NCBI GenBank assembly: GCA_035546615.1
Contig: DASZWM010000002.1
Location: 15,460 to 79,459 of the forward strand
Reading direction: 5' to 3'
DNA length: 64,000 bases
From: Minisyncoccota bacterium
Lineage (GTDB): Bacteria; Patescibacteriota; Minisyncoccia; Phycocordibacterales; SBAW01
Position 1 is the first letter of the stretch. Each line of letters begins with the position of its first letter. A program made the translations under genes and the position numbers. Positions 3,259-58,715 of the stretch are shown piece after piece. The notes under the pieces are model-generated. The model made no database searches. It had not been told where the DNA came from and saw only the letters and a list, made by a program, of their open reading frames with translations.

Positions 3259-4422
3259 CTAACGCAAGGTGCGCAGGAAGCGGGGGACTTCGTTGACGCT
3301 GATTATGTGCTGGGAGCTGTTGCGGGTGGAACGGACGATGACCGTGCCGTCAAGCGCCTCGCGCTGGCCCATGATAAGGAGGTAGGGGACGCCGAGCTCT
3401 GCCGCGGCGGAGAGCTGCATCGAGAGCCGGCTGGCATCGAAGGACTGCAGCACCGGCACGTGCGCCGCGCGCAGCATATCCACGACCGCCAGGCCCTGCA
3501 GCTTGGCGCGCAGGCCGAGCTGGGCGAAATAGATCTTCGGCTTTATAGCAGGCGCGACGGTGGCGAAGTTCTGCTTGGAAACGCCTTTCTTGCGGAAGAA
3601 GATGCTCGCGCCCACGCCGGTTGAGTCCTTGCGGTGGCTTTCGCGCTTGAGGTACTCGTCATAGCGGCCGCCGAGCGCGCCCACGATAGTGGCGTCGTCT
3701 TCTTTGAAATCGAGCGCGAAGGCGATATGGGGGCCGCGCTCGTCGCCGCCCAAGAGGTCGTCGAGCTGATAGGGGATGCCAAGCTGCTCCAGATGCTCGA
3801 GCACGGAGCGGAAATGCACGCGGCTCTTTTCAGAAAGGAAGTGCATCGGCCGCGGACCGCCCTCAAGCAATGCCGTTATCTCCGGCGAGTGCAGGCGATA
3901 GACGGAGAACGGGTCGTCCATCACGCCTTTGCGCGCGGCTTCCTCGAACTGGTCGAGGTTGCGGCGCAGGTAGCTTCCGAGCTCGCGCCCGAAGCGCTGC
4001 TGGCTGTCGCGGTCGCCGAGTGCGTTGACGCGCACGCGCTCAACCTCGCTGCCCCATTCGGTGGCCACCATCGTTATGGTCTTGAGCAGGACTATTTCGC
4101 CGACGCTCTCCGGCGTGCCGATGACCTGGAGGCCGAACTCGCCCACGTCGCGCGGCGACATCCCGCCGGGCACGTGGCTGGGGGCGGGCGTAGCATAAAA
4201 TCCCAGTATCGGGTCCTGCGGCCGCGCGGCCGCGCGCATGGCGCCGAGCAATGCCGCGCTTTGGAACGAGTACACGCCCTGTGTACGGCGGTTGCCGACC
4301 TTCGCCTCGATGTGGCGCATATGGTCGCGCTCTATCTCGCGCATGGGGCGGAAGCCGTAGAACGACGCCACTTCCGACGCGTGCTTCAGGAACGATATCG
4401 GCGATGTTCGGGAGGTACTCAT
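3259..4422 (-). CDS. histidyl-tRNA synthetase-like protein (class II core plus anticodon-binding domain; motif 2 degenerate)
   Basis: GALGGRYDEYL matches the HisRS GGGRYD motif. The C-terminal KIYFAQLG...PYLLIMGQRE...VIVRS looks like a HGTP anticodon-binding domain. The RxERPQ motif-2 region reads FYATPAPSHVP. Confidence 0.6.
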   Translation of the reverse strand: MSTSRTSPISFLKHASEVASFYGFRPMREIERDHMRHIEAKVGNRRTQGVYSFQSAALLGAMRAAARPQDPILGFYATPAPSHVPGGMSPRDVGEFGLQVIGTPESVGEIVLLKTITMVATEWGSEVERVRVNALGDRDSQQRFGRELGSYLRRNLDQFEEAARKGVMDDPFSVYRLHSPEITALLEGGPRPMHFLSEKSRVHFRSVLEHLEQLGIPYQLDDLLGGDERGPHIAFALDFKEDDATIVGALGGRYDEYLKRESHRKDSTGVGASIFFRKKGVSKQNFATVAPAIKPKIYFAQLGLRAKLQGLAVVDMLRAAHVPVLQSFDASRLSMQLSAAAELGVPYLLIMGQREALDGTVIVRSTRNSSQHIISVNEVPRFLRTLR

Positions 4423-10265: not shown

Positions 10266-12749
10266 ATGGCTGACGACGAAACAAAGAAAGACCCCAAAGA
10301 CGGCCGCACTGACGGCGGCACCGGCATAGTCGGGCGCAACATCTCCACCGAGATGCGCGAGAGCTTCATCGACTACGCGATGTCGGTCATTACCGACCGC
10401 GCGCTTCCTGATGTGCGCGACGGATTGAAGCCCGTGCACCGCCGCATCCTCTACACCATGCATCGCCTGGGGCTCACGCCTTCGGCGCGCTTCCGCAAGT
10501 CGGCGCTCGTGGTGGGCGACGTGCTCGGCAAATACCATCCGCACGGCGACGCGTCCGTATACGACGCGATGGTAAAAATGGCGCAGGAGTTCTCCATGCG
10601 CTATCCGCTCGTGCTCGGCCAGGGCAACTTTGGTTCCGTGGACGGCGACTCGGCCGCCGCCATGCGCTACACCGAAGCGAAGATGTCCCGCATGGCGGAG
10701 CAGCTCCTCGGCGATATCGAAAAGGAAACTATCGACTGGCGCCCCAACTACGACGGCAGCCTCAAGGAGCCGGTGGTGCTTCCGGCCGCGGTGCCCAACA
10801 TTTTGCTTAACGGCACGCTCGGCATCGCTGTGGGTATGGCCACCTCTATCCCGCCGCACAACCTCACCGAGCTCTCAAACGCGCTCGTGCACCTTATTGA
10901 GAATCCCGAGGCGACGGTAGAGGACCTCATGCAGTTCGTCACCGGCCCCGACTTCCCAACAGGTGCGCTCGTATTTAATAAGAAGGACCTGCTCCACGCG
11001 TACACCACCGGCAAGGGCGGCGTGGTTACCCGCGGCGTTGCCGAAATTGTGGAGGGCAAGAAGGGCGACTATCAGATAGTCATTACCTCCATACCGTACC
11101 GCGTGAACAAGGCCGACATGATAATGCGCGTAGCCGACCTCGTGCACGAGAAGAAGCTCGAGGGCATCCGCGGCCTGCGCGACGAGTCCACCAAGGACAT
11201 CCGCATCGTAGTAGACCTGAAGCAGGGCGCGCATCCGCAGAAGGTGCTCAACTACCTCTACAAGCACACGGCGCTCGAGGACACGTTCCACTTCAACATG
11301 GTCGTGCTCGTGGACGGCGTGCCCCAGACCCTGTCGCTGAAGGGGATACTGCAGGAATTCATCAAGCACCGCCAGGACGTCGTGCGCCGCCGCACGCAGT
11401 ACGACCTTACGCAGGCGCAGGCCCGCGAGCATATATTGCTCGGCCTCAAGAAGGCGCTCGACCATATCGACGAGATAATCAAGCTCATCCGCGCATCCCG
11501 GGACGTGGCCGACGCACACGCAAACCTGATGAAGAAGTTCAAGTTCTCCGAACTGCAGGCGACCGCCATTCTTGAAATGCGCCTCCAGAAGCTCGCCAAC
11601 CTCGAGCGCAAGAAGATAGAGGACGAATTGAAAGAGGTTCAGGCCCTTATCGAAGAGCTCACGAGCCTGCTGAAGAGCGAAAAGAAGATGATGACGGTCA
11701 TCCGCGGCGAAATAGAGGACATCAACAAGAAATACGGCGACGAGCGCAACACCAAGGTGGTAAAGGGCGCGGCAGGCGTCATTAACGTCGAGGACCTCGT
11801 GCCCGACGAGGAGCAAGTGCTCGTGCTCACCCAGGGCGGCTATGTAAAGCGCACCAACCCCGACGAGTTCCGCAAGCAAAAGCGCGGCGGCGTGGGCGTC
11901 ATCGACCTCGATACCAAGGAGGAGGACTTCGTAACGAACTTCCTCACGACCTCGACGCACTCGGACCTGCTCTTTTTCACCAACGCGGGCAAGGCGTACC
12001 AGCTGAAGTTCTACGAGATCCCCGAAGGCAAGCGCTCCACCAAGGGCCGCCCTATTGTGAACTTCCTCTCCGTTACCCCCGAAGAGCGCGTTACCTCGGT
12101 GCTCCCTATGCGCAAGAACCAGAAGGAGGGCGAGAAATTCCTCTACATGATAACCAAGCAGGGCGTCGTGAAGAAATGCGACGCGACTGCCTTCCACGAT
12201 GTGCGCCGCTCCGGCCTCATCGCGCAGAAGCTCCAGAAGAACGACGAGCTCATCGCGGCACTCTTGGTGGAGAAGGGCGATGAAATATTCCTTTCGACCG
12301 CCAAGGGGCAGTCTATCCGCTTCAAGGAGTCCGACGTGCGCCCGATGGGCCGCGCGGCCGGAGGCGTGCGCGGCATGAAGCTCAGCGGCGGCGATACCAT
12401 CGTGGGTGCCGATGTGGTTAAGAAGGGAGTAAAGAACCAGGAAGTGCTCGTCATTTCACGCAACGGCTACGGCAAGACGACCGCGACCGAAGAATATAAG
12501 AACCAGAACCGCGGCGGCTCCGGCATCAAGACCATGAATATGACCCCCAAGACCGGCCCGCTTATCGCTGCGCGCATCATCACCAAGGAAGATGGCGTGG
12601 GTGAGGACGAGATCGTGGTCATATCTAAAAAAGGCCAGGTCATCCGCACCGAGCTTAAGGAGATCCCCAGCCTTTCCCGCAGCACGCAGGGCGTACGCGT
12701 TATGAAGCTCCGCGAAGGCGATGCGATAGCAAGCTTCGTTTGTCTATAG
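10266..12749 (+). CDS. gyrA: DNA gyrase subunit A
   Basis: [27 protein letters not shown] (active-site Tyr) and C-terminal beta-pinwheel repeats. Confidence 0.97.
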
Positions 12750-12752
12750 GAT

Positions 12753-13346
12753 ATGGATACTACCACTCAGGCGTATCTTGAAATTCTGGAGAAAACAAAT
12801 CAGCAATTAAGTCTTTGGTATAACCCATATGGTCTAATGGTGGCAGTATTGACTGGCCTAGTAGCGGCACTTGCAATTGTTTTTGCTTTTATTTTATGGA
12901 GACAGCAGAAAGAATATAAAGATGCTTTTAAAGATTTTCTCGCTGAACGTAAAAAGTTCGCCAATAGTGAGATAGCAAAGGCAATAGTAGAAGCCGGAAA
13001 AGTGCTTGACGATAAAATTATAGAAGCGGACAAACAACTCAAAGATATAAAAGACTCAAGTAGCAAAACAAAAAAAGACATTGAGAAGGAAATTCAAGAA
13101 CTCAAAAAGTCCAGAGAATCTTTGCAGTCAGGTAGTGCGATTTTTCGTAGTGGAGGTGTGAGCGGCCCAATATATGGCACCGCTGCGAGTTCTATTTTGG
13201 GAGTAGCTTCTGGCGCGAATAGTACAACCGTTTGGGATCCAACTTCTAGTGTATTTAGTGCTGTTGGTAAAATATGTGGTTTTTGTGGAACTCAGAATTA
13301 TCCTGGCGCACAATTCTGTTTCTCTTGTGGGAACCCCCTTGGATAA
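12753..13346 (+). CDS. membrane-anchored coiled-coil protein with C-terminal zinc ribbon
   Basis: TM helix MVAVLTGLVAALAIVFAFILW, a Lys/Glu-rich helix, and C-terminal CGFCGTQNYPGAQFCFSCGNPL. First gene of the AT-rich island. Confidence 0.6.
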   Translation: MDTTTQAYLEILEKTNQQLSLWYNPYGLMVAVLTGLVAALAIVFAFILWRQQKEYKDAFKDFLAERKKFANSEIAKAIVEAGKVLDDKIIEADKQLKDIKDSSSKTKKDIEKEIQELKKSRESLQSGSAIFRSGGVSGPIYGTAASSILGVASGANSTTVWDPTSSVFSAVGKICGFCGTQNYPGAQFCFSCGNPLG

Positions 13347-13383
13347 AAAGTTCTTGTCTTCCTAGAAAGAATCTAATCACTAT

Positions 13384-14358
13384 ATGAAAATAAAGATTGA
13401 AGAATTGCGGCAATTAATGGTTAAAATTCTTGCGGGCAAGTATTACTCGCAGGAGGAGGCAGAAAAGATTGCCGAAGTTTTTCTTTATGCTGAATTGTCC
13501 GGTAAAAATACACAAGGAGTTCTTAAACTTCTTGGTTCTGAGCCGGCTCAAAATATACAGCCCAAGTATCTTCCTAAGATTATAAAAGAGACAAAAGTAT
13601 CTGCGCTTGTAGACGGAGGCGGAGCGGCCGGACCTTTGGCAGCTCAATTTGCACTAGATAAGGCGATTTCATTGGCTAAAGAGACTGGAGTAGGAATTGT
13701 GGGTTTAAACAATACTTTTTCTAGCGTAGGAGTTATGGGATTTTATGCTCGCAAGATGGCCCAAGCAAATCTGATAAGTATTGTGAGTGCAAGTTCACCC
13801 AGAGCAATTGTTCCTGCGGGAGGTATTGAGCCAGCTTTTGGCACAAACCCCATAGCATTTGGTTTCCCTACAGAAGAATATCCAATCGTTTTTGATATGG
13901 CGTCTTCGGCTATCACTTGGTATGGGCTTGTTCGTGCAAAAGCCCTTGGTCAAAAGCTACCCGAAAATGTCGCGATTGATAAAGAAGGAAACATAACAAC
14001 TGATCCTGAGGCGGCAATGGCTGGAGCTATTTTACCTTTTGATCGCTCTTACAAAGGTTCTGGGCTGGCTATGGTCGTTGAACTCTTAGCGGGAGCTTTT
14101 ACAGGTGCATCGGTTGTATTTGACGAAGGTGACTGGGGAACTTCCTTTATTGCCTTTAGTCCCGATCTTGTTATTGGCACTGAGCAATTCAAGAAAAAGT
14201 CCTCAGAGCTGGTAAAGAAAGTAAAAGCAGGCAAAACCAAAGCAGGAGAGAGCATACATATCGCCGGTTATGACAGCGAGGCAAAGCTAAAAGAGATCAA
14301 TGATTCAGGAGAGATAGAGATTGAAGATAAAATTCTCGATCAACTAAAGACTTTGTAA
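13384..14358 (+). CDS. Ldh_2 family malate/L-lactate/sulfolactate-type dehydrogenase
   Basis: AEVFLYAELSGKNTQGV, GFPTEEYPIVFDMASS and SYKGSGLAMVVELLAG resemble the Ldh_2 family. Confidence 0.75.
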   Translation: MKIKIEELRQLMVKILAGKYYSQEEAEKIAEVFLYAELSGKNTQGVLKLLGSEPAQNIQPKYLPKIIKETKVSALVDGGGAAGPLAAQFALDKAISLAKETGVGIVGLNNTFSSVGVMGFYARKMAQANLISIVSASSPRAIVPAGGIEPAFGTNPIAFGFPTEEYPIVFDMASSAITWYGLVRAKALGQKLPENVAIDKEGNITTDPEAAMAGAILPFDRSYKGSGLAMVVELLAGAFTGASVVFDEGDWGTSFIAFSPDLVIGTEQFKKKSSELVKKVKAGKTKAGESIHIAGYDSEAKLKEINDSGEIEIEDKILDQLKTL

Positions 14359-14365
14359 TAAGAAT

Positions 14366-14905
14366 ATGAAATTTGGGAACTTGAAATTTGCGCCTGCCAT
14401 TGAACACCCAGAACTTTTGGCTGCTCCTGTTGCTAGTGCACTTACGAGTTTGTCCATCGCTGATGTTGGTGTCGCAGAAATCGACCCAGCTCTCTCCGAC
14501 ACCGCAGCATTTTGCGAGAAGTACGCCGTTGTGCCTGCCCAGGCTGCTAATTGTGTAGTGCTTAAGTACAAAAAAGGCGAAGAGTCGGCCTTTGTCGCAT
14601 GCGTGATTTTGGCAACCACTCGTGCTGATGTGAACGGCCTGGTGCGCAAGGTACTCGACATCAAAAAGATTTCTTTTGCGCCCATGGAGGAAGCCGTGGC
14701 AGGAAGCTCGATGGAATTTGGAGCAATAACTCCTATCGGTTTACCAGCTAATTGGCCAATTTTAATAGACAAAGCCGTTGTCGATTCTCCTGGGGTTATA
14801 ATCGGGAGCGGAATTCGCAAATCTAAATTAGGTTTACCGGGCAGAGTTCTTGCTTCACTGCCGAACATACAAATACTTGAAGGGCTAGGTCAGGTAAAGA
14901 CATAA
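14366..14905 (+). CDS. YbaK/EbsC-type aminoacyl-tRNA deacylase domain protein
   Basis: NCVVLKYKK..., FAPMEEAVAGSSMEFGAITPIGLP, IIGSG. Layout matches the YbaK/ProRS-editing family. Confidence 0.65.
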   Translation: MKFGNLKFAPAIEHPELLAAPVASALTSLSIADVGVAEIDPALSDTAAFCEKYAVVPAQAANCVVLKYKKGEESAFVACVILATTRADVNGLVRKVLDIKKISFAPMEEAVAGSSMEFGAITPIGLPANWPILIDKAVVDSPGVIIGSGIRKSKLGLPGRVLASLPNIQILEGLGQVKT

Positions 14906-14912
14906 TAAATAT

Positions 14913-15167
14913 ATGAGCAAAGGAGATACAGTACCGCCAGTTCCTTCGGACGCTCCTCAGGTAGGAGAGGTCTTTAAGCATTACAAAGGGGACCCATACC
15001 GCGTCGTAGCGCTCGCGCTCCATTCCAACGACGACGAGTGGATGGTGGTGTACGAGCCCATATACGAAAATCCGGCCGCGCCCATGTTTACCCGGCCGGT
15101 TCGGGAGTGGGGAGAGGAAGTAGAGTGGGAAGGCAAAAAAGTGAAGCGCTTTCAAAAAACAGCTTAA
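14913..15167 (+). CDS. DUF1653-like small protein
   Basis: FKHYKGDPYRVVALALHSNDDEWMVVYEPIY...MFTRPVREW matches the DUF1653 pattern. Confidence 0.6.
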   Translation: MSKGDTVPPVPSDAPQVGEVFKHYKGDPYRVVALALHSNDDEWMVVYEPIYENPAAPMFTRPVREWGEEVEWEGKKVKRFQKTA

Positions 15168-15199
15168 TTCTTTATTTTAGCTTTTTGCAAAAAACTAAA

Positions 15200-15604
15200 A
15201 TGAAAAAGACCGTCATCTTCGACATGTACGGCGTGCTGGTGCGCCGGAACTTTTTCATAAACGAGGAGGAAGATACGGAGATGGTCGCGCTTGTGCGGGA
15301 GCTTAAAGAAAGGGGAACTCAGCTTCTGCTACTTTCCAATATCTATATATGGAACTCGGCGCACTTCAAAAGGAAGTACCGCTTTTTGGAGCTGTTCGAC
15401 AGGCTCTACTTCTCTTCCGACACTCACTTTTCCAAGCCCGACCCGGCGGCATTCCGAATGGTGCTTGAGGAAAATAACCTAAGCTCCGAAGACTGCGTCT
15501 TTTTTGACGACACAAAGGCCAATGTAGAAGGGGCGAAAGCCCTCGGCATAGAAGCGTATGTGTTTGAAGGCCCGGATGCGACAAGAAAAGCATTGGGTAT
15601 GTAG
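15200..15604 (+). CDS. HAD-superfamily hydrolase
   Basis: MKKTVIFDMYGVL (DxYG motif I) and FFDDTKANVEGA (motif IV). Start moved to the internal ATG at 15200 of ORF 15038..15604. Confidence 0.75.
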   Translation: MKKTVIFDMYGVLVRRNFFINEEEDTEMVALVRELKERGTQLLLLSNIYIWNSAHFKRKYRFLELFDRLYFSSDTHFSKPDPAAFRMVLEENNLSSEDCVFFDDTKANVEGAKALGIEAYVFEGPDATRKALGM

Positions 15605-15670
15605 GAGAGGGACGAAAAGGGATATTTAATGCTATAACACCGGAAGATGAATAGTGGAAAGGGGGCAGCG

Positions 15671-16066
15671 ATGCCGAAAATCGAAATCGACAAGATGATG
15701 CTGGCTCGGGTGGAGGGGAGAAAGCTCCTGTTCGCCCGCACGCGCGGCCTGGATACCTTTTACAGCCTGGGCGGCAAGCGCGAGCCGGGCGAAACGGATG
15801 AGCAGGCACTGGTACGCGAAGTGCTGGAAGAGGCGAACGTCCGCATAGACCCCGCTACCATTAAGCACGTACAGACCTTTGAAGGGCCCGCCCCGGACGG
15901 CCGTTGGATGCGCATGACCTGCTACGACGCGGAATTTGAGGGCGTCATGACGCCTTCAAGCGAAATAGAGGAGTTCAAATATCTGAGCTCAACCGATAAG
16001 CAGCTGACAACCCAGATGGGCGCCATGCTCCTGGACTGGTTCAAGGAACAAGACCTCATCGACTGA
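15671..16066 (+). CDS. NUDIX hydrolase
   Basis: Nudix box GGKREPGETDEQALVREVLEEANV. A G-rich RBS lies before the ATG at 15671. Confidence 0.85.
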   Translation: MPKIEIDKMMLARVEGRKLLFARTRGLDTFYSLGGKREPGETDEQALVREVLEEANVRIDPATIKHVQTFEGPAPDGRWMRMTCYDAEFEGVMTPSSEIEEFKYLSSTDKQLTTQMGAMLLDWFKEQDLID

Positions 16067-24075: not shown

Positions 24076-24148
24076 GCGCCTATAGCTCAGCTGGTAGAGC
24101 TGCTCCCTCTTAAGGAGAAGGTCCCAGGTTCGAATCCTGGTGGGCGCA
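24076..24148 (+). tRNA. tRNA-Lys (anticodon CTT)
   Basis: GCGCCTA TAGCTCAGCTGGTAGAGC, anticodon loop CTCTTAA, T arm CCCAG GTTCGAAT CCTGG. Confidence 0.92.
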
Positions 24149-24159
24149 CAGACGACAGT

Positions 24160-24184
24160 AAAATCCCGCTTGAGCGGGATTTTC
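24160..24184 (+). terminator. rho-independent terminator after tRNA-Lys
   Basis: AAAATCCCGC ttga GCGGGATTTT. Confidence 0.7.
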
Positions 24185-24278
24185 TGCGCTGTGCGGGGCG
24201 CAGCCATGTCCCGCACTGGCGGGACGGCGAGCCGGGGTCGCGAAACTATTTCGCGACGGCGAAATAGTATTTGTGACC
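24184..24278 (+). repeat. tRNA-linked structured element, copy D (short form, 3' of tRNA-Lys)
   Basis: CTGCGC tgtgcggg GCGCAG; CCCGC actg GCGGG; ACGGCGAGCCGGGGTCGCG; ACTATTTCGC gacg GCGAAATAGT; ATTTGTGACC. Shares the core, GACG-loop hairpin and tail with copy E. Confidence 0.55.
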
Positions 24279-24301
24279 ACAAAGTGCGAGACGCTTTTTT
24301 G

Positions 24302-24447
24302 AGGCCAGGAGAAATCGATCAGGCGTTCAAAAATTGTCGTCACAATTTTTGCCGCACGACCCTGCCTCGCTCCCAAGTCTGCTGACTTGGGGCCCGCTCC
24401 GGCTTGCGATTCCCGACGAGAAGCACCCCGTGCTTCTCTCCATGGCC
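24302..24447 (-). repeat. tRNA-linked structured element, copy A (long form, 3' of tRNA-Cys)
   Basis: Three perfect hairpins plus the conserved core GCCGGAGCGGG..GGGAGCGAGGCAGGGTCGTG shared with copies B and C. The arms derive from the tRNA-Cys 3' end. Confidence 0.8.
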
Positions 24448-24469
24448 GCTTGCGTCGAAGACTCCTTAG

Positions 24470-24541
24470 AGGCCACGGCGGGAATCGCACCCGCGTATAA
24501 AGGATTTGCAGTCCCTTGCCTTACTACTTGGCTACGTGGCC
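24470..24541 (-). tRNA. tRNA-Cys (anticodon GCA)
   Basis: GGCCACG/CGTGGCC acceptor, anticodon loop CTGCAAA, T arm GCGGG TGCGATT CCCGC, discriminator U. Confidence 0.9.
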
Positions 24542-31954: not shown

Positions 31955-32107
31955 GTGCGCCGGGGAGGAATCGGTCAGGAATAAAGTGTTCGCCGTCGCG
32001 AATACTTTTTCACGACCCTGCCTCGCTCCCGCATCTGGTGATGCGGGGCCCGCTCCGGCTTGCGAATCCTCACGCAAGGTATCCCATACCTTGCTCCCGC
32101 GCAGCAC
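31955..32107 (-). repeat. tRNA-linked structured element, copy B (long form, 3' of tRNA-Tyr)
   Basis: Same three-hairpin architecture and core as copies A and C. It ends with a 15-nt exact copy of the tRNA-Tyr 3' end (31955-31969 = 32152-32166). Confidence 0.8.
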
Positions 32108-32114
32108 ATAACGC

Positions 32115-32144
32115 AAAAAGTCCTAGCAAGAGCTAAGACTTTTT
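32115..32144. terminator. terminator between tRNA-Tyr and element B
   Basis: AAAAAGTCCTAG caagag CTAAGACTTTTT (7 of 8 bp), with an A-run and T-run on either side. Confidence 0.55.
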
Positions 32145-32152
32145 GACGTTTG

Positions 32153-32235
32153 TGCGCCGGGGAGGATTCGAACCTCCGTAGCCCGAAGGCGACAGGTTTA
32201 CAGCCTGTTGTAATTGACCACTCTACCACCGACGC
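32153..32235 (-). tRNA. tRNA-Tyr (anticodon GTA)
   Basis: GCGTCGG/CCGGCGC acceptor, anticodon loop CTGTAAA, long variable arm, T arm GGAGG TTCGAAT CCTCC. Confidence 0.9.
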
Positions 32236-32313: not shown

Positions 32314-33414
32314 ATGCGCAATAGGGGTGCCGTACTCATATTTGCGGGAGGGCTGCTCTTTACCCTCTTGCCGTTTATCGCCTCGGCCGCCGGGATTGTT
32401 CCATGTGGCGATACCACGGGCCTTGCGCCAGGTACTCCTCAGTATTACGCGGCCGCAACAAGTTGTCAGGCATGCAGCGTAATTCAACTGATTCAGACCC
32501 TTATTAACTTCATGATAGGACTCTCCATTCCTATCGCGATGGCGCTCTTCGCCTGGGCCGGCGTCCTGTATTTTACAGCCGCTACCAAGGAGGAGAATAT
32601 ATCAAAGGCAAAGAGCATTTTCCGCAGCGTATTTGTCGGATTCATCATAGTTCTCGGCGCATACCTTATGGTAGAGACGCTCCTGCACGCCATTCTTAAT
32701 CAGGATTACTTTACCGGCTGGAACAAGATCGAATGCGTTGATAATACCAAGCGCCCAACCCAGGGCACGCTCGGTCAACTGATAAATGAAGTAATAGGCC
32801 ATCCGGAAGATTCTTTAGTTGTTGGGAAGGCTCCTGTCGCGGTAAGCGATCCGTCTACATGTACCGGCAAACTGAGCTACGACAGCTCTATCAATCAGTA
32901 TTACTGCTTGAATACAGTCAGCGGCATGGTCAGTCAAACAGGCTCTGGACAGTGTGCGCCCGGCAGCATACAAGCTGCTGCTGCGGCGGGAGGATATCCC
33001 ATTACACCAGCACAAGCTCAGACCTTTTCCTGCCTTGCGGCTCCGGAAAGCGGTTGCCAAGGGAATCCTGGCCAAGCCAGGACGCCGACCGGCGACCCGA
33101 CAAGCGCTTCCGGCCATTTTCAGATCGTCCTTGGCCTCAATGATCAGTGTCATAATCTGAATATTCCTGCATGCACCCAGGCTGCGCAAGCAGCCGGCTA
33201 TTCGGTAAGCGGGAATCTCAATTGCTCCAGCCACTTCAGGGGAGGCGTTCCTATAGACGCAGTAGGACAGGCATGCAAGGCGGCGGCAAGCAACTTTACC
33301 TGCAATGCTTCGGCTGCGGCTTGTCTGGTAACGCAGAATCCAAGCTTTAGCGACTGGACGGCGGACCCTCGCAGCAGTTCACAGAAATCATGCGTCAATA
33401 CGTATAATCATTAG
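32314..33414 (+). CDS. pilin-like N-terminal module fused to a Cys-rich extracellular domain (possible lytic transglycosylase-like)
   Basis: N-terminus has IVPCG...SCQACSVIQLIQTLINFMIGLSIPIAMALFAWAGVLYF...KAKSIF..., the pilin layout of 19846-21419. The C-terminal ~240 aa carry many Cys residues and APESGC...SASGHFQI, which resembles the SLT E-S ... G-x-x-Q motif. Confidence 0.6.
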   Translation: MRNRGAVLIFAGGLLFTLLPFIASAAGIVPCGDTTGLAPGTPQYYAAATSCQACSVIQLIQTLINFMIGLSIPIAMALFAWAGVLYFTAATKEENISKAKSIFRSVFVGFIIVLGAYLMVETLLHAILNQDYFTGWNKIECVDNTKRPTQGTLGQLINEVIGHPEDSLVVGKAPVAVSDPSTCTGKLSYDSSINQYYCLNTVSGMVSQTGSGQCAPGSIQAAAAAGGYPITPAQAQTFSCLAAPESGCQGNPGQARTPTGDPTSASGHFQIVLGLNDQCHNLNIPACTQAAQAAGYSVSGNLNCSSHFRGGVPIDAVGQACKAAASNFTCNASAAACLVTQNPSFSDWTADPRSSSQKSCVNTYNH

Positions 33415-34259: not shown

Positions 34260-34330
34260 GGGCCTATAGTTTAACGGTAGAACGTCGGTCTCCAAAACCG
34301 TCGGTCGAGGTTCAATTCCTCGTGGGCCCG
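34260..34330 (+). tRNA. tRNA-Trp (anticodon CCA)
   Basis: GGGCCTA/TGGGCCC acceptor, anticodon loop CTCCAAA, T arm CGAGG TTCAATT CCTCG. Confidence 0.88.
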
Positions 34331-34371
34331 CAAAAGACGCAAAATGCAACCTTCGTTGCTTTTTGTGCGTT

Positions 34372-34459
34372 GCGGGAGACGGAGCGATGCCGCGCAATGG
34401 CGCGGCCGCGAGTCGGGGTCGCGAAAATTTTTTGCGACGGCAAAAAGTTATTTGTGACC
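34372..34459 (+). repeat. tRNA-linked structured element, copy E (divergent short form, 3' of tRNA-Trp)
   Basis: GGAGCGATGCC; GCCGCGC aatg GCGCGGC; CGCGAGTCGGGGTCGCG; AAAATTTTTTGC gacg GCAAAAAGTT; ATTTGTGACC. Confidence 0.5.
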
Positions 34460-35341
34460 GCTCAAAAATTTTTTTGCGAGCCGCATAGCCTTCGCTTTGT
34501 TCCCGATCCAGATAATGTCCTTGTTCCGCTTGAACCAGCGCATCTGGCGCTTGGCATAATCCCAGTTTCCCCGTTCTATTTCCGCTACAAGCGCCTCTTT
34601 GTTCAGCAAGCCTTGCAGATACTGCGCAAGAGAACGGTATTCAAGCCCCAGCTCATGCATGCGCTTGTATGACACTCCTGCCTTGTGCAAACGTTTTGCT
34701 TCCATCACCATGCCTGCTTTCATGCGCCGGATGGTGCGAAGATGGATATTTTTCTTGAGCTTTTTCTCATCTGGCGCCAGCCCCAGCCACAGGACGTCAT
34801 ATTTCTGTTCAGGCTTGGGTAGAGGGCTTTTGCCGATAGCCTTGGCTATCTCTATCGCGCGTATGATACGCCGCTTGTGTCCGGGTTCAATAGTGCCAGC
34901 GCGGCGCAGGTCGAGCTTTTTAAGAATTGACAGCAGCTCTTCGGCGCTCTTTTTCTCGAGCCGCGCACGAAGTGCGGGGTTAGGCGCCACATTGGGCATA
35001 GTCATGCGGCCCAGGAGCATATCGATATACAGCCCCGTTCCACCAACTACTATGGGGAAAGTATGATATATCATACTTTTTTCGATCACGTTTTGCGCCT
35101 TCTTTACGAAGTCGTCGACGGAGAACTGCCTTTTAGGCGACGCGACGTTGAGCAGGTGGTGGGGGATGCCGGCCATCTCTTTTTTTGTAACTTTGCCGGT
35201 CGCAATATCGAGGCCGCGGTAGACTTGCCGCGAGTCGGCGGAGATTATCTCGCCGCCCAACTTTTGCGCAAGAAAAATACCAAGGGCGCTCTTGCCCGAA
35301 GCGGTCGGTCCGACTATAGCGATAACTTTAGGCTTTGACAT
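34448..35341 (-). CDS. miaA: tRNA dimethylallyltransferase
   Basis: IVGPTASGKSALGIFLA, ISADSRQVYRGLDIATGK. Confidence 0.93.
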   Translation of the reverse strand: MSKPKVIAIVGPTASGKSALGIFLAQKLGGEIISADSRQVYRGLDIATGKVTKKEMAGIPHHLLNVASPKRQFSVDDFVKKAQNVIEKSMIYHTFPIVVGGTGLYIDMLLGRMTMPNVAPNPALRARLEKKSAEELLSILKKLDLRRAGTIEPGHKRRIIRAIEIAKAIGKSPLPKPEQKYDVLWLGLAPDEKKLKKNIHLRTIRRMKAGMVMEAKRLHKAGVSYKRMHELGLEYRSLAQYLQGLLNKEALVAEIERGNWDYAKRQMRWFKRNKDIIWIGNKAKAMRLAKKFLSGHK

Positions 35342-36939: not shown

Positions 36940-37053
36940 TGGCGGGGGGAATCGGCTACCACGTAGCCAGGTACTTTTCGATCTCGATGACTCGATAACG
37001 AAAAGTCTTTCGATTCTCCCATGGAAGCAAATCAATTTGCTTCCTCCCCGGAC
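36940..37053 (-). repeat. tRNA-linked structured element, copy F (variant core, 3' of tRNA-Leu-CAA)
   Basis: hp1 is GGAAGCAAA ttga TTTGCTTCC. GGGAGAATCGAA is the exact reverse complement of the tRNA T arm. The distal CCGATTCCCCCCGCCA is a decayed copy of the tRNA 3' end. Confidence 0.55.
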
Positions 37054-37060
37054 TCCAGAC

Positions 37061-37088
37061 AGAAAAAGAGCCGGGCGGTAAGCCTGGC
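37061..37088 (-). terminator. terminator after tRNA-Leu(CAA)
   Basis: On the minus strand, GCCAGGC ttacc GCCCGGC followed by TCTTTTTCT. Confidence 0.6.
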
Positions 37089-37098
37089 CTGTTTTCTG

Positions 37099-37185
37099 TG
37101 GTGCCGGGGGGGAGAATCGAACTCCCATGCCATTGCTGGCGCGGGATTTTGAGTCCCGTGCGTCTACCAATTCCGCCACCCCGGC
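37099..37185 (-). tRNA. tRNA-Leu (anticodon CAA), CCA encoded
   Basis: GCCGGGG/CCCCGGC acceptor, anticodon loop CTCAAAA, long variable arm, T arm GGGAG TTCGATT CTCCC, 3' ACCA. Confidence 0.9.
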
Positions 37186-55431: not shown

Positions 55432-55502
55432 TGCCCGATCGTCTAATGGTAGGACAGAGGCCTTTGAAGCCTTTAATTGGGGTTCGAATCCCTGTCGGGC
55501 AG
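55432..55502 (+). tRNA. tRNA-Gln (anticodon TTG)
   Basis: TGCCCGA/TCGGGCA acceptor (U1-A72), anticodon loop CTTTGAA, T arm TGGGG TTCGAAT CCCTG. Confidence 0.9.
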
Positions 55503-55523
55503 CAAATGTAGCGAAGCGTAATT

Positions 55524-55664
55524 TGCGCCCGAAGGAAGCAATGGGATTGCTTCCGGCAGGGATTCGAAAGCCGGAGCGGGACCCGCATCAGCAGATGCGG
55601 GAGCGAGGCAGGGTCGTGCGGCTAAAGTTGCGACGGCAACTTTAGAACGCCTGACCGAATCCCT
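55524..55664 (+). repeat. tRNA-linked structured element, copy C (long form, 3' of tRNA-Gln)
   Basis: hp1 is GGAAGCAAT ggg ATTGCTTCC, hp2 is CCCGCATC agca GATGCGGG, hp3 is CTAAAGTTGC gacg GCAACTTTAG. The core is near-identical to copies A and B. CAGGGATTCGAA is the exact reverse complement of the tRNA-Gln T arm. Confidence 0.8.
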
Positions 55665-55726
55665 AAGAAGTTTCTAGTTTTCTCTGTCTCTAGGCAGAAT
55701 CACTTTTTGATGGTAAATCTGTCCTG

Positions 55727-57400
55727 ATGCCGTATTCGACTGATATGTCAGTGTATTTAGATTTGGGCGGCGCTTTAGCTGCTTTTGGCCTTTTATTTAC
55801 TGTTTACCAACTTCGGCGACCAAGGTGGGAGGTAATTTTGCGAATTAGAAATAATTGGCAAAGTGATATTTTCTGGATATTAGGTTTTATAGGTTTGTTT
55901 TATGCCCTAGTTGGCGTGCTTGTATCTGAACTCCCAATTAATTCTTTCAACTTTCCGTTTAATACCCCATTACTTTACGAGGTGGCAGCGTACCTATCGT
56001 TTGTAGCTTCACCTCTGTCATTAATATATTTTGCGACCAATGACAAAAAGTTATTTAACGCAAAAACTGCAGAAACTTTCTACGAAGTAATCTTGCAAGA
56101 AATTTCTAAATCTAGTGATGTAAACCTAGATGCGGCATTGGAAATAGTCTTGAGAAACTTTAATGAAATTTGTGATGCAACTCTTCAAAATACAGATAAA
56201 GATTTGCGCTCATACGCAAGGTCAATTTTAGACGTTGTACTAAGTGACGAGTCTGTAGTAAAAGTGCTCACTACCAAGAGGCTTGATGCTTTGCAATATA
56301 TCTTTTATTTAATAAAGGAAAAGAATATCACTCGTGCTCATTCGGGGATAGGTATACCGAGAATTGTAAATAATCTTTTCTTTGACGAAAATTCCTTCCT
56401 CTATAAACAACTCGATAGAAAAGGGTTGGCACTTTCATCAAATATATACACGAGCATTTTTGAATCTCCAGTTATACTCACCAACTTTGATCTGTTTGGG
56501 TACCCGACTATCGGTTATGGAATGAGTAGAGATACTGGCAATGCTGGTATAAGAGTATTTATCAAAGCCTTATCTCTAAGCATTGAAACTTACTTTAAAA
56601 CAGGGAGCGTGCCTCCGAGGCACATTAATAATGGGTTGTCTTACTTAAGCAATATATTTGGAGGGTTGTGTGCAAAAATTGCCATCAAAGAAAATAAAGG
56701 TGTTGATACTAAATCTAGTTTAGAAGATGAGTGGTGGGGCTTACATCAAATAGCCTCCTTTTTAGGACATGATTATATTTTTCTTGCCTATGAAGAAAAA
56801 CTAAATCAGCAAGTTCTGGAAAACGAAAAAACTGCCCATGAGGCTCGATTTGGCTCAAATGCAACTATAAATGAGGGTATTGCAGCTGTTATCTATAAAG
56901 CTTTTGAGCAGCTTTCACAAATTAAAAAAACCACAGACATATATCATACAGTTCTGGAGCTCTTGCATGGAATGATGAATGAGCCTACCTACAAGGAAGG
57001 TTATAGACCGCCTTTTGAAAAGAGACTCTGGCAACAAATCGGTGCAAATGTTGCTAAACGTTATTATCCTGCCGTCGTTAGAACGTATTTAACCTTTGTT
57101 GGGTTCTGTCTTGGCGCAGATGCAAACCAACGACAAGGTTGGATTGGCGAACAAGCGGAACGTATGAGACGACTTTTGTATATTGACCTTAAGCCTTTAT
57201 TTGATAAGAATGAAAAAATGATAAATAAGGAATTTATGAAAGACGTTTTGCTCCCAGATTCCATGTCCTATAAAGATGGTAAATTTACTTATACCTCTGG
57301 ATTCGGAGAAGGTACAACCACTGAAGTAGCACCACCCCCTGAGGGTGCGACATCAGGTTTGGAAGGAATAGATTTAGAGAGTATGCCTCACTTCGTCTAG
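55727..57400 (+). CDS. ORFan membrane protein (3 N-terminal TM helices plus a ~450-aa helical domain)
   Basis: 557-aa ORF in the AT-rich island. No motif recognised. Confidence 0.65.
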   Translation: MPYSTDMSVYLDLGGALAAFGLLFTVYQLRRPRWEVILRIRNNWQSDIFWILGFIGLFYALVGVLVSELPINSFNFPFNTPLLYEVAAYLSFVASPLSLIYFATNDKKLFNAKTAETFYEVILQEISKSSDVNLDAALEIVLRNFNEICDATLQNTDKDLRSYARSILDVVLSDESVVKVLTTKRLDALQYIFYLIKEKNITRAHSGIGIPRIVNNLFFDENSFLYKQLDRKGLALSSNIYTSIFESPVILTNFDLFGYPTIGYGMSRDTGNAGIRVFIKALSLSIETYFKTGSVPPRHINNGLSYLSNIFGGLCAKIAIKENKGVDTKSSLEDEWWGLHQIASFLGHDYIFLAYEEKLNQQVLENEKTAHEARFGSNATINEGIAAVIYKAFEQLSQIKKTTDIYHTVLELLHGMMNEPTYKEGYRPPFEKRLWQQIGANVAKRYYPAVVRTYLTFVGFCLGADANQRQGWIGEQAERMRRLLYIDLKPLFDKNEKMINKEFMKDVLLPDSMSYKDGKFTYTSGFGEGTTTEVAPPPEGATSGLEGIDLESMPHFV

Positions 57401-57402
57401 AT

Positions 57403-57960
57403 ATGAATCCAAACATTTGGTTTTACACTTTTAGTACAGCAGCCCAAGTAATGGCGGCTTTGGCCGGTTTATTTGCAGTATTTGTTGTATATAAGATTCA
57501 AGATTTTAGTCAGCTTATAAAAGACGCCCGCTCTAGTCTGTCCCGGTTGATTCCATACAATTCAGCGAATACGGGCGGAGATACAATCTCTAAGCAGGAA
57601 GTATTAGATATGACTGATAGAGAATTGGTTACTACGCTTGCCGAGTTGTTAGTACTTGAGACATCTCAGAATGGAGCGTTCTTTAGCGGACATTCAGAAA
57701 CTATAGATGGCACAACGATAGCTGTAAACTCGAATACCTACGACTATTTCGCAGCCCTTGTTGATAAAAAGGAAAGAATACTAAAACGTCTGATTTTTGT
57801 CTTGGGTTTAAGTTTAGGAACTATTTGTGTTTGTCTAGTATCATTGGTGCTAATTGACGTGTTATCAAAGTTTGAGTGGTTTATTTGGATGTGTTTGGCT
57901 TTATTTATATACACCCTTTGGACAATCGGAATGGATATTTACAAGATAACCCTAGAGTAA
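57403..57960 (+). CDS. ORFan membrane protein (1 N-terminal and 2 C-terminal TM helices)
   Basis: 185 aa, starting 3 nt after the previous stop. The N-terminal helix MAALAGLFAVFVVYKI resembles that of the 557-aa protein (LAAFGLLFTVYQL). Confidence 0.6.
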   Translation: MNPNIWFYTFSTAAQVMAALAGLFAVFVVYKIQDFSQLIKDARSSLSRLIPYNSANTGGDTISKQEVLDMTDRELVTTLAELLVLETSQNGAFFSGHSETIDGTTIAVNSNTYDYFAALVDKKERILKRLIFVLGLSLGTICVCLVSLVLIDVLSKFEWFIWMCLALFIYTLWTIGMDIYKITLE

Positions 57961-57969
57961 TCTTTCTCT

Positions 57970-58293
57970 ATGAAAGGAATAATTATCGAAAATAGTCTCA
58001 AAGACAAAAGTATTATCACCGAAGCTGAAATTATTCGAACTTGGGAAGATGGAAGTTGGAAGTTGCGGGAGGTAAAAGTTTCAACAGAATGGGCTGAAAA
58101 ATTTGGAGGATACTTAAATGATGGACCCTGGTATGTTCACTTTTGGGAATCCGACAGCGACGATGTACTAGTAGTATTTAAAGACAAAAGCTTCTGGATC
58201 AAACATTCGGACAAGAATACTTGGCAAGATGCTATTGCTCATGGAAAGTCGTTACATATACCCGTGGAGCAATTAGACTTTCCTATTGATTGA
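57970..58293 (+). CDS. small soluble ORFan protein
   Basis: 107 aa, Trp/Asp-rich, same operon-like spacing. Confidence 0.5.
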   Translation: MKGIIIENSLKDKSIITEAEIIRTWEDGSWKLREVKVSTEWAEKFGGYLNDGPWYVHFWESDSDDVLVVFKDKSFWIKHSDKNTWQDAIAHGKSLHIPVEQLDFPID

Positions 58294-58331
58294 GATTTCG
58301 ATTTCTCCCTTTTATATTATATAATCAAGAT

Positions 58332-58715
58332 ATGAAGTATTTGCTAATCACGGCTTTATTTTTGGTTGTCTTTGTGTTTGCTACTCCAGCAAAGGCCGCA
58401 CCATTAACCCAATCCCAAGTAAATGCAATAATTACTATTATGCAGTCTTTCGGTGTAGATAGTGCTACGATTTTAAATATCAAAACAACACTCTCTAATT
58501 CGACTTCCGCTAAGGTAGAATCCGTCGTCAAAACTACTTTTAAAGGAGTTCCTACCTACGCACAAGTGAAAAGAGAGTTAGCAAAATCACGCAATAAGGA
58601 GGTGACTTATATGGAGAATGGATGTGTATACTCAATAAACCATTTAGTGAGTGAACATATTTTCAAAACACGCGATATGAGTATTCGCGATCTTGCATCT
58701 GGAGCAAGTTGTTAG
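58332..58715 (+). CDS. secreted ORFan protein
   Basis: Signal peptide MKYLLITALFLVVFVFATPAKA/AP. Start is the internal ATG of ORF 58290..58715. Confidence 0.5.
   Translation: MKYLLITALFLVVFVFATPAKAAPLTQSQVNAIITIMQSFGVDSATILNIKTTLSNSTSAKVESVVKTTFKGVPTYAQVKRELAKSRNKEVTYMENGCVYSINHLVSEHIFKTRDMSIRDLASGASC

Follow-up and report, generated by a model that had tools for sequence, protein, structure and literature searches.

Mechanisms in which a folded single strand or an internal pairing guide directs recombination are established for the attC sites of integrons, the attP site of CTX phage and the insertion sequences (ISs) of the IS200/IS605 group. Short elements found behind transfer RNA (tRNA) genes in a 64,000-nt stretch of a Minisyncoccota bacterium (contig DASZWM010000002.1; the whole stretch is referred to as the window) were compared with these systems, the copy 3' of tRNA-Gln serving as reference. 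With a probability of roughly 55%, they are non-autonomous, protein-less, site-specific integrative mini-elements, the recombination substrate of which is a folded single strand made up of arm, core and target copy. That they are mobile integrative elements of some kind is highly probable; transfer by way of single-stranded DNA is only a tentative proposal. By analogy, the element would work most like an attC-type folded site with target-derived arms, combined with the gene-end replacement of tRNA-integrating islands.

Two forms were distinguished, both with the layout U-C/Z*-(S)-y'-core-C/Z (slashes mark the junctions). U denotes the target gene's upstream part; Z* would be a replacement gene 3' end carried by the element (for tRNA-Gln, from G57 onward); S is an optional terminator-like hairpin; y' is the left arm, which in T-loop insertions is interrupted by hairpin 1 (hp1) at the boundary of T-stem and acceptor stem; the core is a conserved module of ~95 nt with two hairpins; and Z, the right arm, would be the displaced original gene end, which decays afterwards. 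The left arm is complementary to 3 nt of U and to the first 5-20 nt after the junction. The inverted repeats are target copies of 5 to 22 nt, and the direct repeat measures ~3 to >90 nt. In the long forms (Gln, Cys, Tyr, Leu-CAA) the junction lies in the T-loop (TTC/GA), and in the short forms, to which Lys, Trp and about half of all copies belong, it precedes the tRNA end by two bases (C/AC or C/GC). The junction is preceded by TTC, CGC, CAC, ACC or GTC, which have only the C at -1 in common. The window copies are ~130-200 bp in size, and elements are longer where a gene end is carried; the distance from tRNA end to core is 58-330 nt, and neither this interval nor the elements as a whole contain an open reading frame (ORF).

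As in the linear form of an integron cassette with its attC site, a short start sequence is repeated in inverted orientation at the 5' side of an imperfect folded hairpin, and the next unit opens with a direct copy; folding and (for the elements, putative) recombination of one strand, structure that is kept more than sequence, and tandem arrays are further common features. The elements differ from attC in that RYYYAAC/GTTRRRY boxes and a linked IntI gene are missing, the arms copy the target (5-22 nt, >20 targets) and vary from copy to copy, the core is strongly conserved in sequence, insertion is at a gene 3' end and not at attI, and the cargo consists of a gene end and terminator only. The attP site of CTX phage, an integrative mobile element exploiting Xer, mimics dif and likewise has two inverted target-like copies ~90 nt apart, a stem that imitates a duplex target, and an integration enzyme that is not encoded beside the site; the target of the elements, however, is not dif, their size is 140 nt as against a phage genome, and their targets are many. 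With IS200/IS605 and the palindrome-associated transposable elements derived from it, the elements share strand-specific hairpins, the absence of terminal inverted repeats of their own, (putative, for the elements) pairing of an internal guide at the cleavage site and a non-autonomous state. They are unlike these in lacking a fixed target of four or five nucleotides (the C at -1 alone is shared) and in having a guide of up to ~20 nt that pairs mainly 3' of the cut, a carried copy of the target 3' end and no replication-strand bias; neither a TnpA or TnpB gene nor a recurrent ORF family of this kind was found nearby in ~100 loci of up to 8 kb.

Islands and prophages in tRNA and transfer-messenger RNA (tmRNA) genes share with the elements the targets, the two crossover positions (T-loop, 3' end), the supply of a replacement 3' end and the displacement of the original as a direct repeat. 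The present elements, in contrast, are 100 to 1000 times smaller, have no integrase or cargo between the repeats and possess an extra inverted target copy and a conserved core in which a single strand folds. The bridge RNA or seekRNA of IS110 is similarly a structured nucleic acid of ~150 nt with short target-matching stretches and a programmable target, but it lies inside the IS beside a DEDD recombinase, and its target and donor loops pair with both sides of the crossover; the elements have no linked ORF, and their arms match the same side. Miniature inverted-repeat transposable elements, finally, are bounded by terminal inverted repeats that are constant and stem from a parent IS, with a short target-site duplication of fixed length; the repeats found here vary.

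The family appears to be undescribed and widespread. With Rfam 15 at gathering thresholds, only the eight tRNAs were returned for the whole window; with the Gln element at E ≤ 10, nothing was returned past the tRNA except for two 13-bit chance matches. No tRNA or tmRNA call by ARAGORN or Rfam overlapped any element. In the full-text literature no description of the elements was found, coverage being incomplete and an earlier description possible. Both searches agree with the statement, made in an earlier sequence-only reading of the window, that no described family matches. Group I introns of Patescibacteria tRNA genes, which lie at anticodon-loop position 35/36 (PMC13011429), and the guide arrays of TIGR-Tas, which consist of 36-nt units beside Nop-domain genes (PMC12045711), were found to be unrelated.

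The tRNA-Gln copy and the target-matched arms

The coordinates of the Gln copy and of the other copies in the window are collated in Table 1. All parts of the Gln element named in the sequence-only reading were present at 55524-55664. The acceptor part of its left arm is complementary to the acceptor 3' strand of the tRNA (exact over GCCCGA); the T part reproduces tRNA positions 54-65 exactly in reverse complement and spans the junction, with 3 nt on the 5' side. The hp1 of other copies has the frame GAGC..GCGK. Within the core, helix Pa (GCC:GGC) and a GGA/GA internal loop are followed by hairpin 2 (hp2; CCCGCATC agca GATGCGGG) and by hairpin 3 (hp3), a long hairpin of the form GGTCG...GACG loop...TGACC, the last base of which is the junction C. 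The right arm repeats in direct orientation, and in shortened form, the stretch of the tRNA that runs from the T-loop into the T-stem 3' strand, and in the integration model it would be the displaced original gene end. Folding of the Gln element as a single strand gave -74 kcal/mol, compared with -49.8 ± 4.0 kcal/mol for shuffled sequences (z = -6.1); stable folds were likewise obtained for the opposite strand and with DNA parameters, as is expected of any set of palindromes.

Table 1. Positions (within the window) of the parts of the tRNA-Gln copy and of the other elements.
Feature	Position	Strand	Basis
tRNA-Gln(UUG), target gene	55432..55503	+	ARAGORN; Rfam tRNA, 60.7 bits
Spacer (20 nt), tRNA-Gln to left arm	55504..55523	+	sequence; terminator scan
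Gln left arm, acceptor part TGCGCCCGA-A	55524..55533	+	read directly
Gln hp1 hairpin GGAAGCAAT ggg ATTGCTTCC	55534..55554	+	at acceptor/T-stem junction of the arm
Gln left arm, T part GG + CAGGGATTCGAA	55555..55568	+	12-nt exact run
Gln type-1 core	55569..55656	+	covariance-model match 55560-55658, 86.1 bits; covariation; fold
Gln right arm GAATCCCT	55657..55664	+	9-nt run CGAATCCCT
Terminator-like hairpin, would end the transcript of tRNA-Gln and element	55683..55698	+	terminator scan
Long-form type-1 element (arms, hp1, core) 3' of tRNA-Cys (24469-24541)	24300..24447	-	model match 24315-24413, 80.3 bits; arms
Short-form type-1 element 3' of tRNA-Lys (24076-24149)	24150..24284	+	model match 24187-24280, 80.2 bits
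Long-form type-1 element 3' of tRNA-Tyr (32152-32235)	31955..32151	-	model match 31971-32069, 87.5 bits
Short-form type-1 element 3' of tRNA-Trp (34260-34331)	34332..34461	+	model match 34368-34461, 82.7 bits
Long-form element 3' of tRNA-Leu(CAA) (37099-37185)	36940..37098	-	arm/hp1 layout kept; type-2 core 36954-37008

In the long forms generally, the left arm repeats the T-loop, the T-stem 3' strand and the acceptor 3' strand as their reverse complement, with hp1 at the boundary of the two stems. The exact inverted runs first given as 12, 11, 9 and 12 nt were recovered by scan for Gln, Cys and Tyr; for Leu-CAA, at least 11 nt were obtained by scan and 12 nt by direct reading. The alternative that the left arm is a copy of the tRNA 5' half, by which the element would become a pseudo-tRNA with an insert, was ruled out by two of the copies. 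The T-loop of tRNA-Cys (TGCGATT) is not palindromic and appears in the arm as AATCGCA, and the Gln arm has CAGGG where the T-stem of the tRNA itself has TGGGG, paired via two G·U; the arm is therefore the reverse complement of the 3' strand, as had been read. The description of the right arm as a direct copy of T-loop and T-stem was also correct: in T-loop insertions the copy begins at G57. Right arms range from 27/27 identical (10 nt of trailer included) to almost gone, as would be expected if a displaced copy without function decayed.

The claim that the arms are customised to the neighbouring tRNA was borne out at 64 loci. The mean longest common run of the left arm was 9.6 nt with the cognate tRNA and 5.7 nt with tRNAs of other identity; for the right arm the values were 10.9 and 5.1 nt, respectively. 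In young copies the left arm corresponds to tRNA positions 54-72 exactly, and hp1 sits at the 65/66 boundary, where the D and anticodon arms would branch.

In the short forms, a palindromic terminator-like hairpin of fixed size lies between tRNA end and arm (gap 44-50 nt), and the arm consists of ~5 nt plus the 3' half of the palindrome. The Lys element accordingly shows the order palindromic terminator-like hairpin, TGTGCG (24190-24195), core, ACAAAG; the first five bases of TGTGCG are the reverse complement of the last five of the tRNA (GCGCAC), and the last base is mismatched. The terminator-like hairpin of the Trp element is located at 34346-34359. In the long-form Tyr element, the order is spacer hairpin, left arm, hp1, core and an 18-nt right arm (GATTCCTCCCCGGCGCAC).

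A block of low GC content (0.37-0.48, 55727-58715) begins straight after the Gln element, where the right arm breaks off. Its ORFs encode 557, 185 (hydrophobic stretches, possibly membrane-spanning), 107 and 141 amino acids (aa); no Pfam or NCBIfam match was found for the first three. A continuation of the Gln right arm past the block was sought and not found. The block looks like an islet acquired at the same tRNA site.

Core structure and distribution

The fold of the core comprises the 3-bp helix Pa, the asymmetric GGA/GA loop, a short helix Pb, hp2 and the long hp3. For the 29 consensus pairs of 101 cores, 95.4% of the cells are paired, compared with 72.4% after column shuffling and 31-44% with slid partners; 668 cells are compensatory versus 185, and double changes occur in 20 pairs. 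The selection on secondary structure proposed from the window copies is confirmed by these values. Pa pairs G-N-C with G-N'-C, its middle pair being C-G in 40, G-C in 40 and A-U in 16 cores. One G·U pair of hp3 is invariant (101/101), and a second position is G-C or G-U equally; since these pairs would be A·C mismatches on the other strand, the tRNA-sense strand is pointed to as the folding strand. The GGA/GA loop between Pa and Pb resembles a kink-turn in its GA/GA element; its bulge measures 1 nt, that of a kink-turn 3 nt, followed by tandem sheared G·A pairs between two helices. The GAGC..GCGK frame of hp1 in other copies is similar. A T-run of its own is not present in the core. Columns 66, 73 and 108 of the A1 alignment (55610, 55617 and 55651 in the Gln copy) covary as G/C/G (65 cores) or A/T/C (32 cores), which is unexplained by a simple hairpin. 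In the A/T/C variant, to which Gln, Cys and Tyr belong, CAGG could pair with CCTG in place of the hp3 base; the covarying positions may belong to an alternative helix or form a base triple.

From the 101 cores a covariance model was derived; run over the window with filters off, it gave exactly five matches (80-88 bits), the next best scoring 11 bits. The motif GCGAG-NC-R-GGGTCG-YG also occurs five times, at the same five places. All five cores start 77-126 nt past a tRNA 3' end on the strand of the tRNA; positions at this distance make up <1% of the two strands of the window, so that a placement of 5/5 cores behind tRNAs would be far beyond chance. Six of the eight window tRNAs (ARAGORN, Rfam) are followed by a co-oriented element according to the model and direct reading, in agreement with the earlier count; no element was found downstream of tRNA-Leu-UAA or tRNA-Leu-UAG. 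The Lys and Trp copies had been classed together with Leu-CAA as variant or short forms. The first two, however, have the type-1 core and belong fully to the family, their insertion point being the extreme 3' end of the tRNA instead of the T-loop; in the Leu-CAA copy, the same arms and hp1 surround a different core type.

The Leu-CAA copy gave no type-1 match in the window run and folds to the same topology around its type-2 core. The latter was also found behind tRNA-Phe in another genome (L025; tRNA 4339-4414), with identical flanks and a compensatory change in the first hairpin. The type-2 pattern of both is AGACTTTTC..GAAAAG.ACCTGGCTACGTGGTAGCC up to the junction. Further core types end in ..CCTGTAAGG.GA at the junction (L017, L101, L124) or in ..GGTGCCCAG..GAGGGAGA (L134, L110, L045).

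When one genome per species was scanned with the sequence pattern, at least 118 loci were obtained. Among the matches listed, 16 were chance matches in coding regions of high-GC phyla; at least 102 loci are real members of the family and belong to Patescibacteria of the Paceibacteria type (Kaiser-, Adler-, Nomura-, Taylor-, Zambryskii-, Yonath- and Lloydbacteria, Minisyncoccia and many automatically labelled metagenome-assembled genomes, MAGs), and the core also occurs in a few further MAGs labelled Elusimicrobia or otherwise. Wherever a tRNA lay within 400 nt of the core in the matches listed, the core was 3' of it and co-oriented, and the opposite orientation was not seen. The model added 20 copies that had been missed by the pattern, all 3' of a gene end or in tandem arrays. 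Across Patescibacteria classes the core scores 60-105 bits. Two type-1 cores (L082, 3648-3745; L022, 5609-5706) have the hp2 region enlarged by a large insertion or replaced, which shows that insertions can be accommodated at this point of the module.

At least 19 tRNA identities are occupied. Of the 155 tRNA and tmRNA genes in the listed real-family loci and the window, 76 are accompanied by a strict core at a distance of no more than 330 nt; in nine others, a different core is flanked by an inverted and a direct copy of the tRNA end, and 70 have nothing. Overlooked in the sequence-only reading were the spread across the phylum, the two sublocations, the carried replacement 3' end, the several core types and the targets other than tRNA.

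Evidence for mobility and a possible mechanism

Description as a tRNA-linked family holds for the window copies and is too narrow for the family as a whole, since tmRNA, topA and another protein gene are targeted. Among the matches listed, a type-1 core follows tmRNA in L010, L015, L048, L050 and L091; L022 looks alike by eye. A type-1 core lies 3' of topA in five genomes among the matches listed, and it is followed by a second copy of the last ~25 topA codons with its own stop codon and terminator. Both the in-gene and the displaced copy read as TopA C-terminus (shared motif KTIPERCS.K.CP.HNPHK) and are 64-81% identical in nucleotide sequence, the differences being mostly synonymous. The two copies would thus have evolved apart as coding sequence before they were joined, which argues that the element brought a replacement end and against a target-site duplication. 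In the other protein gene, too, the arm matches coding sequence. A recurrent target upstream of the core in L001, L030, L042, L069 and L095 is a gene end GGTTC(G/T)AAC.TCGTCCA.. with the T-loop-like GGTTCGAA; it is neither a tRNA nor, in the four of these that were searched (L001, L030, L042, L069), an Rfam family.

Occupancy was examined with a 26-nt piece of the window tRNA-Tyr body, which samples sites irrespective of the element. The identical tRNA-Tyr was found on 13 contigs. Some eight distinct contexts are empty, with an ordinary terminator or the next gene following, and three contigs (four sites counting the window copy) are filled with three different cores: a type-1 element in L132, a type-3 core in L124, and in L134 an element of which spacer and left arm are ~95% identical to those of the window copy, while its hp1 differs and its core has diverged strongly (58.7 bits). 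Window and L134 copies are thus mosaic. In addition, tandem arrays were found in which each unit opens with the same 5-nt arm (L061, L092, L096, L003).

In the mechanism proposed, the element would move in trans as a single strand, most likely of DNA. The arm y' would pair with Z*/Z, the arm stem imitating the target duplex, and the core would present this stem to a recombinase acting in trans, either of the type that handles folded single strands (as for integron attC and CTX-phage attP) or of the HUH type (as for IS200/IS605). Exchange of a single strand 3' of the C (TTC/GA in the T-loop, C/AC at the 3' end) and subsequent replication would yield the observed order. As the stem would reproduce the target duplex, the arm would serve as a base-pairing address; because the element would supply the replacement end, the tRNA, tmRNA or protein would stay intact, and this end together with the terminator would keep the host gene working and allow persistence within essential genes. 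Of the two hypotheses offered in the sequence-only reading, the miniature non-autonomous element at tRNA 3' ends is the one favoured by the evidence. More doubtful is the further proposal of a natural DNA-insertion system programmed by base pairing, in which a change of the 5-22-nt arm alone would direct a module of ~95 nt to any gene end, the replacement end would come with the element and the enzyme, possibly a housekeeping one, would act in trans.

Several observations weigh against the integrative mini-element. Clustering of all ORFs in ~100 loci (each up to 8 kb) brought out only housekeeping families as recurrent (e.g., LepA, SmpB, TopA) and none of transposases or integrases; nor was one found among the tested ORFs of the window. 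Neither an excised form nor a circle junction was observed. Occupied and empty tRNAs were in the G-rich sense strand in 59% and 56% of cases (p = 0.58, local skew being a rough proxy for the replication strand), and an IS608-like lagging-strand mechanism is thus not supported. In three young copies (L077, L036, L102) the direct repeat extends 8-10 nt into the trailer and is identical, which suggests local duplication or re-integration within one lineage rather than an imported replacement end. The invariance of GCGAG, GGGTCG, GACG and TGAYC is partly circular, because these positions were imposed by the search pattern, and the copies found by the model only vary there. The model does not account for the re-tailoring of the arm to >20 targets with exact coverage of positions 54-72 and hp1 at 65/66. 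Finally, no terminator lies between the tRNA and the element in the Gln (20-nt spacer) and Cys copies, which places these elements within the tRNA transcription unit; judged from the sequence, both must be transcribed with the tRNA, and their RNA may have some activity in processing or in mobility.

Patescibacteria have among the smallest and most streamlined bacterial genomes, yet about half of the tRNA genes at the sampled loci carry an element. If mobile as proposed, the elements would be among the smallest site-specific integrative elements known, and would constitute a parasite that lives inside essential genes without harm by bringing a spare gene end, often with a terminator. The target-matched arm suggests a base-paired address, the property to which CRISPR, TnpB and bridge RNA owe their usefulness; should the programmable reading be true, the elements would form a hitherto unknown class of mobile element, and the smallest known bacterial genomes would contain an integration site that is compact and can be re-addressed. 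Annotation and phylogeny can be led astray by the pseudo-tRNA fragments and foreign gene ends left behind, which at the same time serve as markers of horizontal transfer between uncultured lineages.

Alternative explanations and further observations

A structured RNA that serves the host is unlikely, though it survives best among the alternatives. It would be transcribed together with the tRNA, its arms would form an acceptor/T-stem minihelix, and cleavage by RNase P and RNase Z would release a stable tRNA-like RNA of ~140 nt or contribute to trimming of the trailer; the match of arms and tRNA would follow from an action of the RNA on the tRNA or from mimicry of it. The strong covariation, the invariant G·U on the tRNA-sense strand and a fold far beyond that of shuffled sequences fit this explanation, as do the exact 54-72 arms of young copies with hp1 at the branch point of the D and anticodon arms, and the terminator that follows the Gln element where none precedes it or the Cys element. 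The arm helix resembles the acceptor and T-stem stack of tRNA-like RNAs (tRNA-like domain of tmRNA, mascRNA, YrlA). Unlike in these, however, the T-loop is replaced by the 95-nt module and the D and anticodon arms by a single hairpin, the elements are not scored as tRNA or tmRNA by ARAGORN or Rfam, and the short forms contain no mimic. All short forms have a terminator-like hairpin between tRNA and core and an arm of 5 nt only; about half of the copies thus have the core downstream of such a hairpin, and no promoter-like site was found ahead of the cores. Cores behind topA and another protein gene, with arms that correspond to coding sequence, right arms that decay (9 nt are left in the Gln copy) and identical tRNA-Tyr genes that lack the element in most related contigs are further points against a host RNA, and the tandem arrays and mosaic copies suit a selfish element. 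A purely RNA role is accordingly less likely. The first original hypothesis, a noncoding RNA that mimics its tRNA or pairs with it, is therefore a fair description of the fold and a poor explanation of the tmRNA and topA targets, the upstream terminators and the pattern of presence and absence.

Mobility by an RNA route is improbable. A read-through transcript would be copied by a reverse transcriptase encoded elsewhere, and the complementary DNA would recombine at a gene end. The sense strand does fold, and inverted repeats round two hairpins, with AGNC conserved just past the 5' arm, recall the msr-msd of retrons with their a1/a2 repeats; reverse transcriptases of diversity-generating retroelements are, moreover, common in this radiation. 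Retrons, in contrast, are single-copy and lie beside a reverse-transcriptase gene, whereas five copies per 64 kb are present here and no reverse-transcriptase ORF recurs near the elements in ~100 loci; terminators ahead of many cores would also limit the template. Two more specific versions were ruled out: reverse transcription of the arms from mature tRNA, since they copy the genomic trailer and not the CCA end, and homing of a diversity-generating retroelement, since the two topA copies do not differ at adenines specifically.

The probability is lower still that the elements are scars of larger islands or prophages, i.e., attL/attR sites of tyrosine integrases with the core as a remnant of an attP arm. 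Direct repeats of the tRNA 3' part are indeed present at both ends, as in tRNA-integrating islands (right arms up to 27 nt identical), the crossover lies in the T-loop or at the 3' end, which are reportedly the classic integrase sublocations in tRNA genes, and a low-GC block follows the Gln copy. Against this stand the uniform size and layout in at least 100 loci, the absence of integrase or phage genes between the repeats, and the covarying hairpins and strand-specific G·U, for which a double-stranded attP has no need. A phage origin was also rejected on the basis of a scan of viral contigs, in which only three chance matches inside coding sequence were obtained.

Mere intrinsic terminators or repetitive extragenic palindromes behind tRNA genes can be dismissed almost entirely: terminator-like hairpins are part of many copies, and a hairpin that takes in the tRNA-Tyr 3' end occurs in an unrelated phylum as well, but the 95-nt core is kept across Patescibacteria classes (60-105 bits), has an internal loop, two covarying helices and no T-run of its own, and is never reversed or away from a gene end in the window and the matches listed.

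The hairpin of the unrelated phylum was observed on metagenome contigs of high GC content. In L122 and L127 the tRNA-Tyr 3' end (CCCCTCCCCACCA) is followed 40-70 nt on by its reverse complement (TGGTGGGGAGGGG), and in L128 by a weaker complement (TTTGGTGG); L126 and L129 show none. The long hairpin of the former three takes in the acceptor 3' strand and is not accompanied by a type-1 core. The gene content of the window is Patescibacteria-like (gyrA, topA, clpB and a short IF-2). Beside tRNA-Tyr, a 366-aa ORF (32314-33414) weakly matches a type IV secretion pilin (PF18895, E = 1.7e-6). At 12000-16000 the GC content is low once more (0.47-0.49), and this second stretch contains genes for a member of the malate/L-lactate dehydrogenase family, a YbaK-like aminoacyl-tRNA editing domain and a HAD hydrolase.

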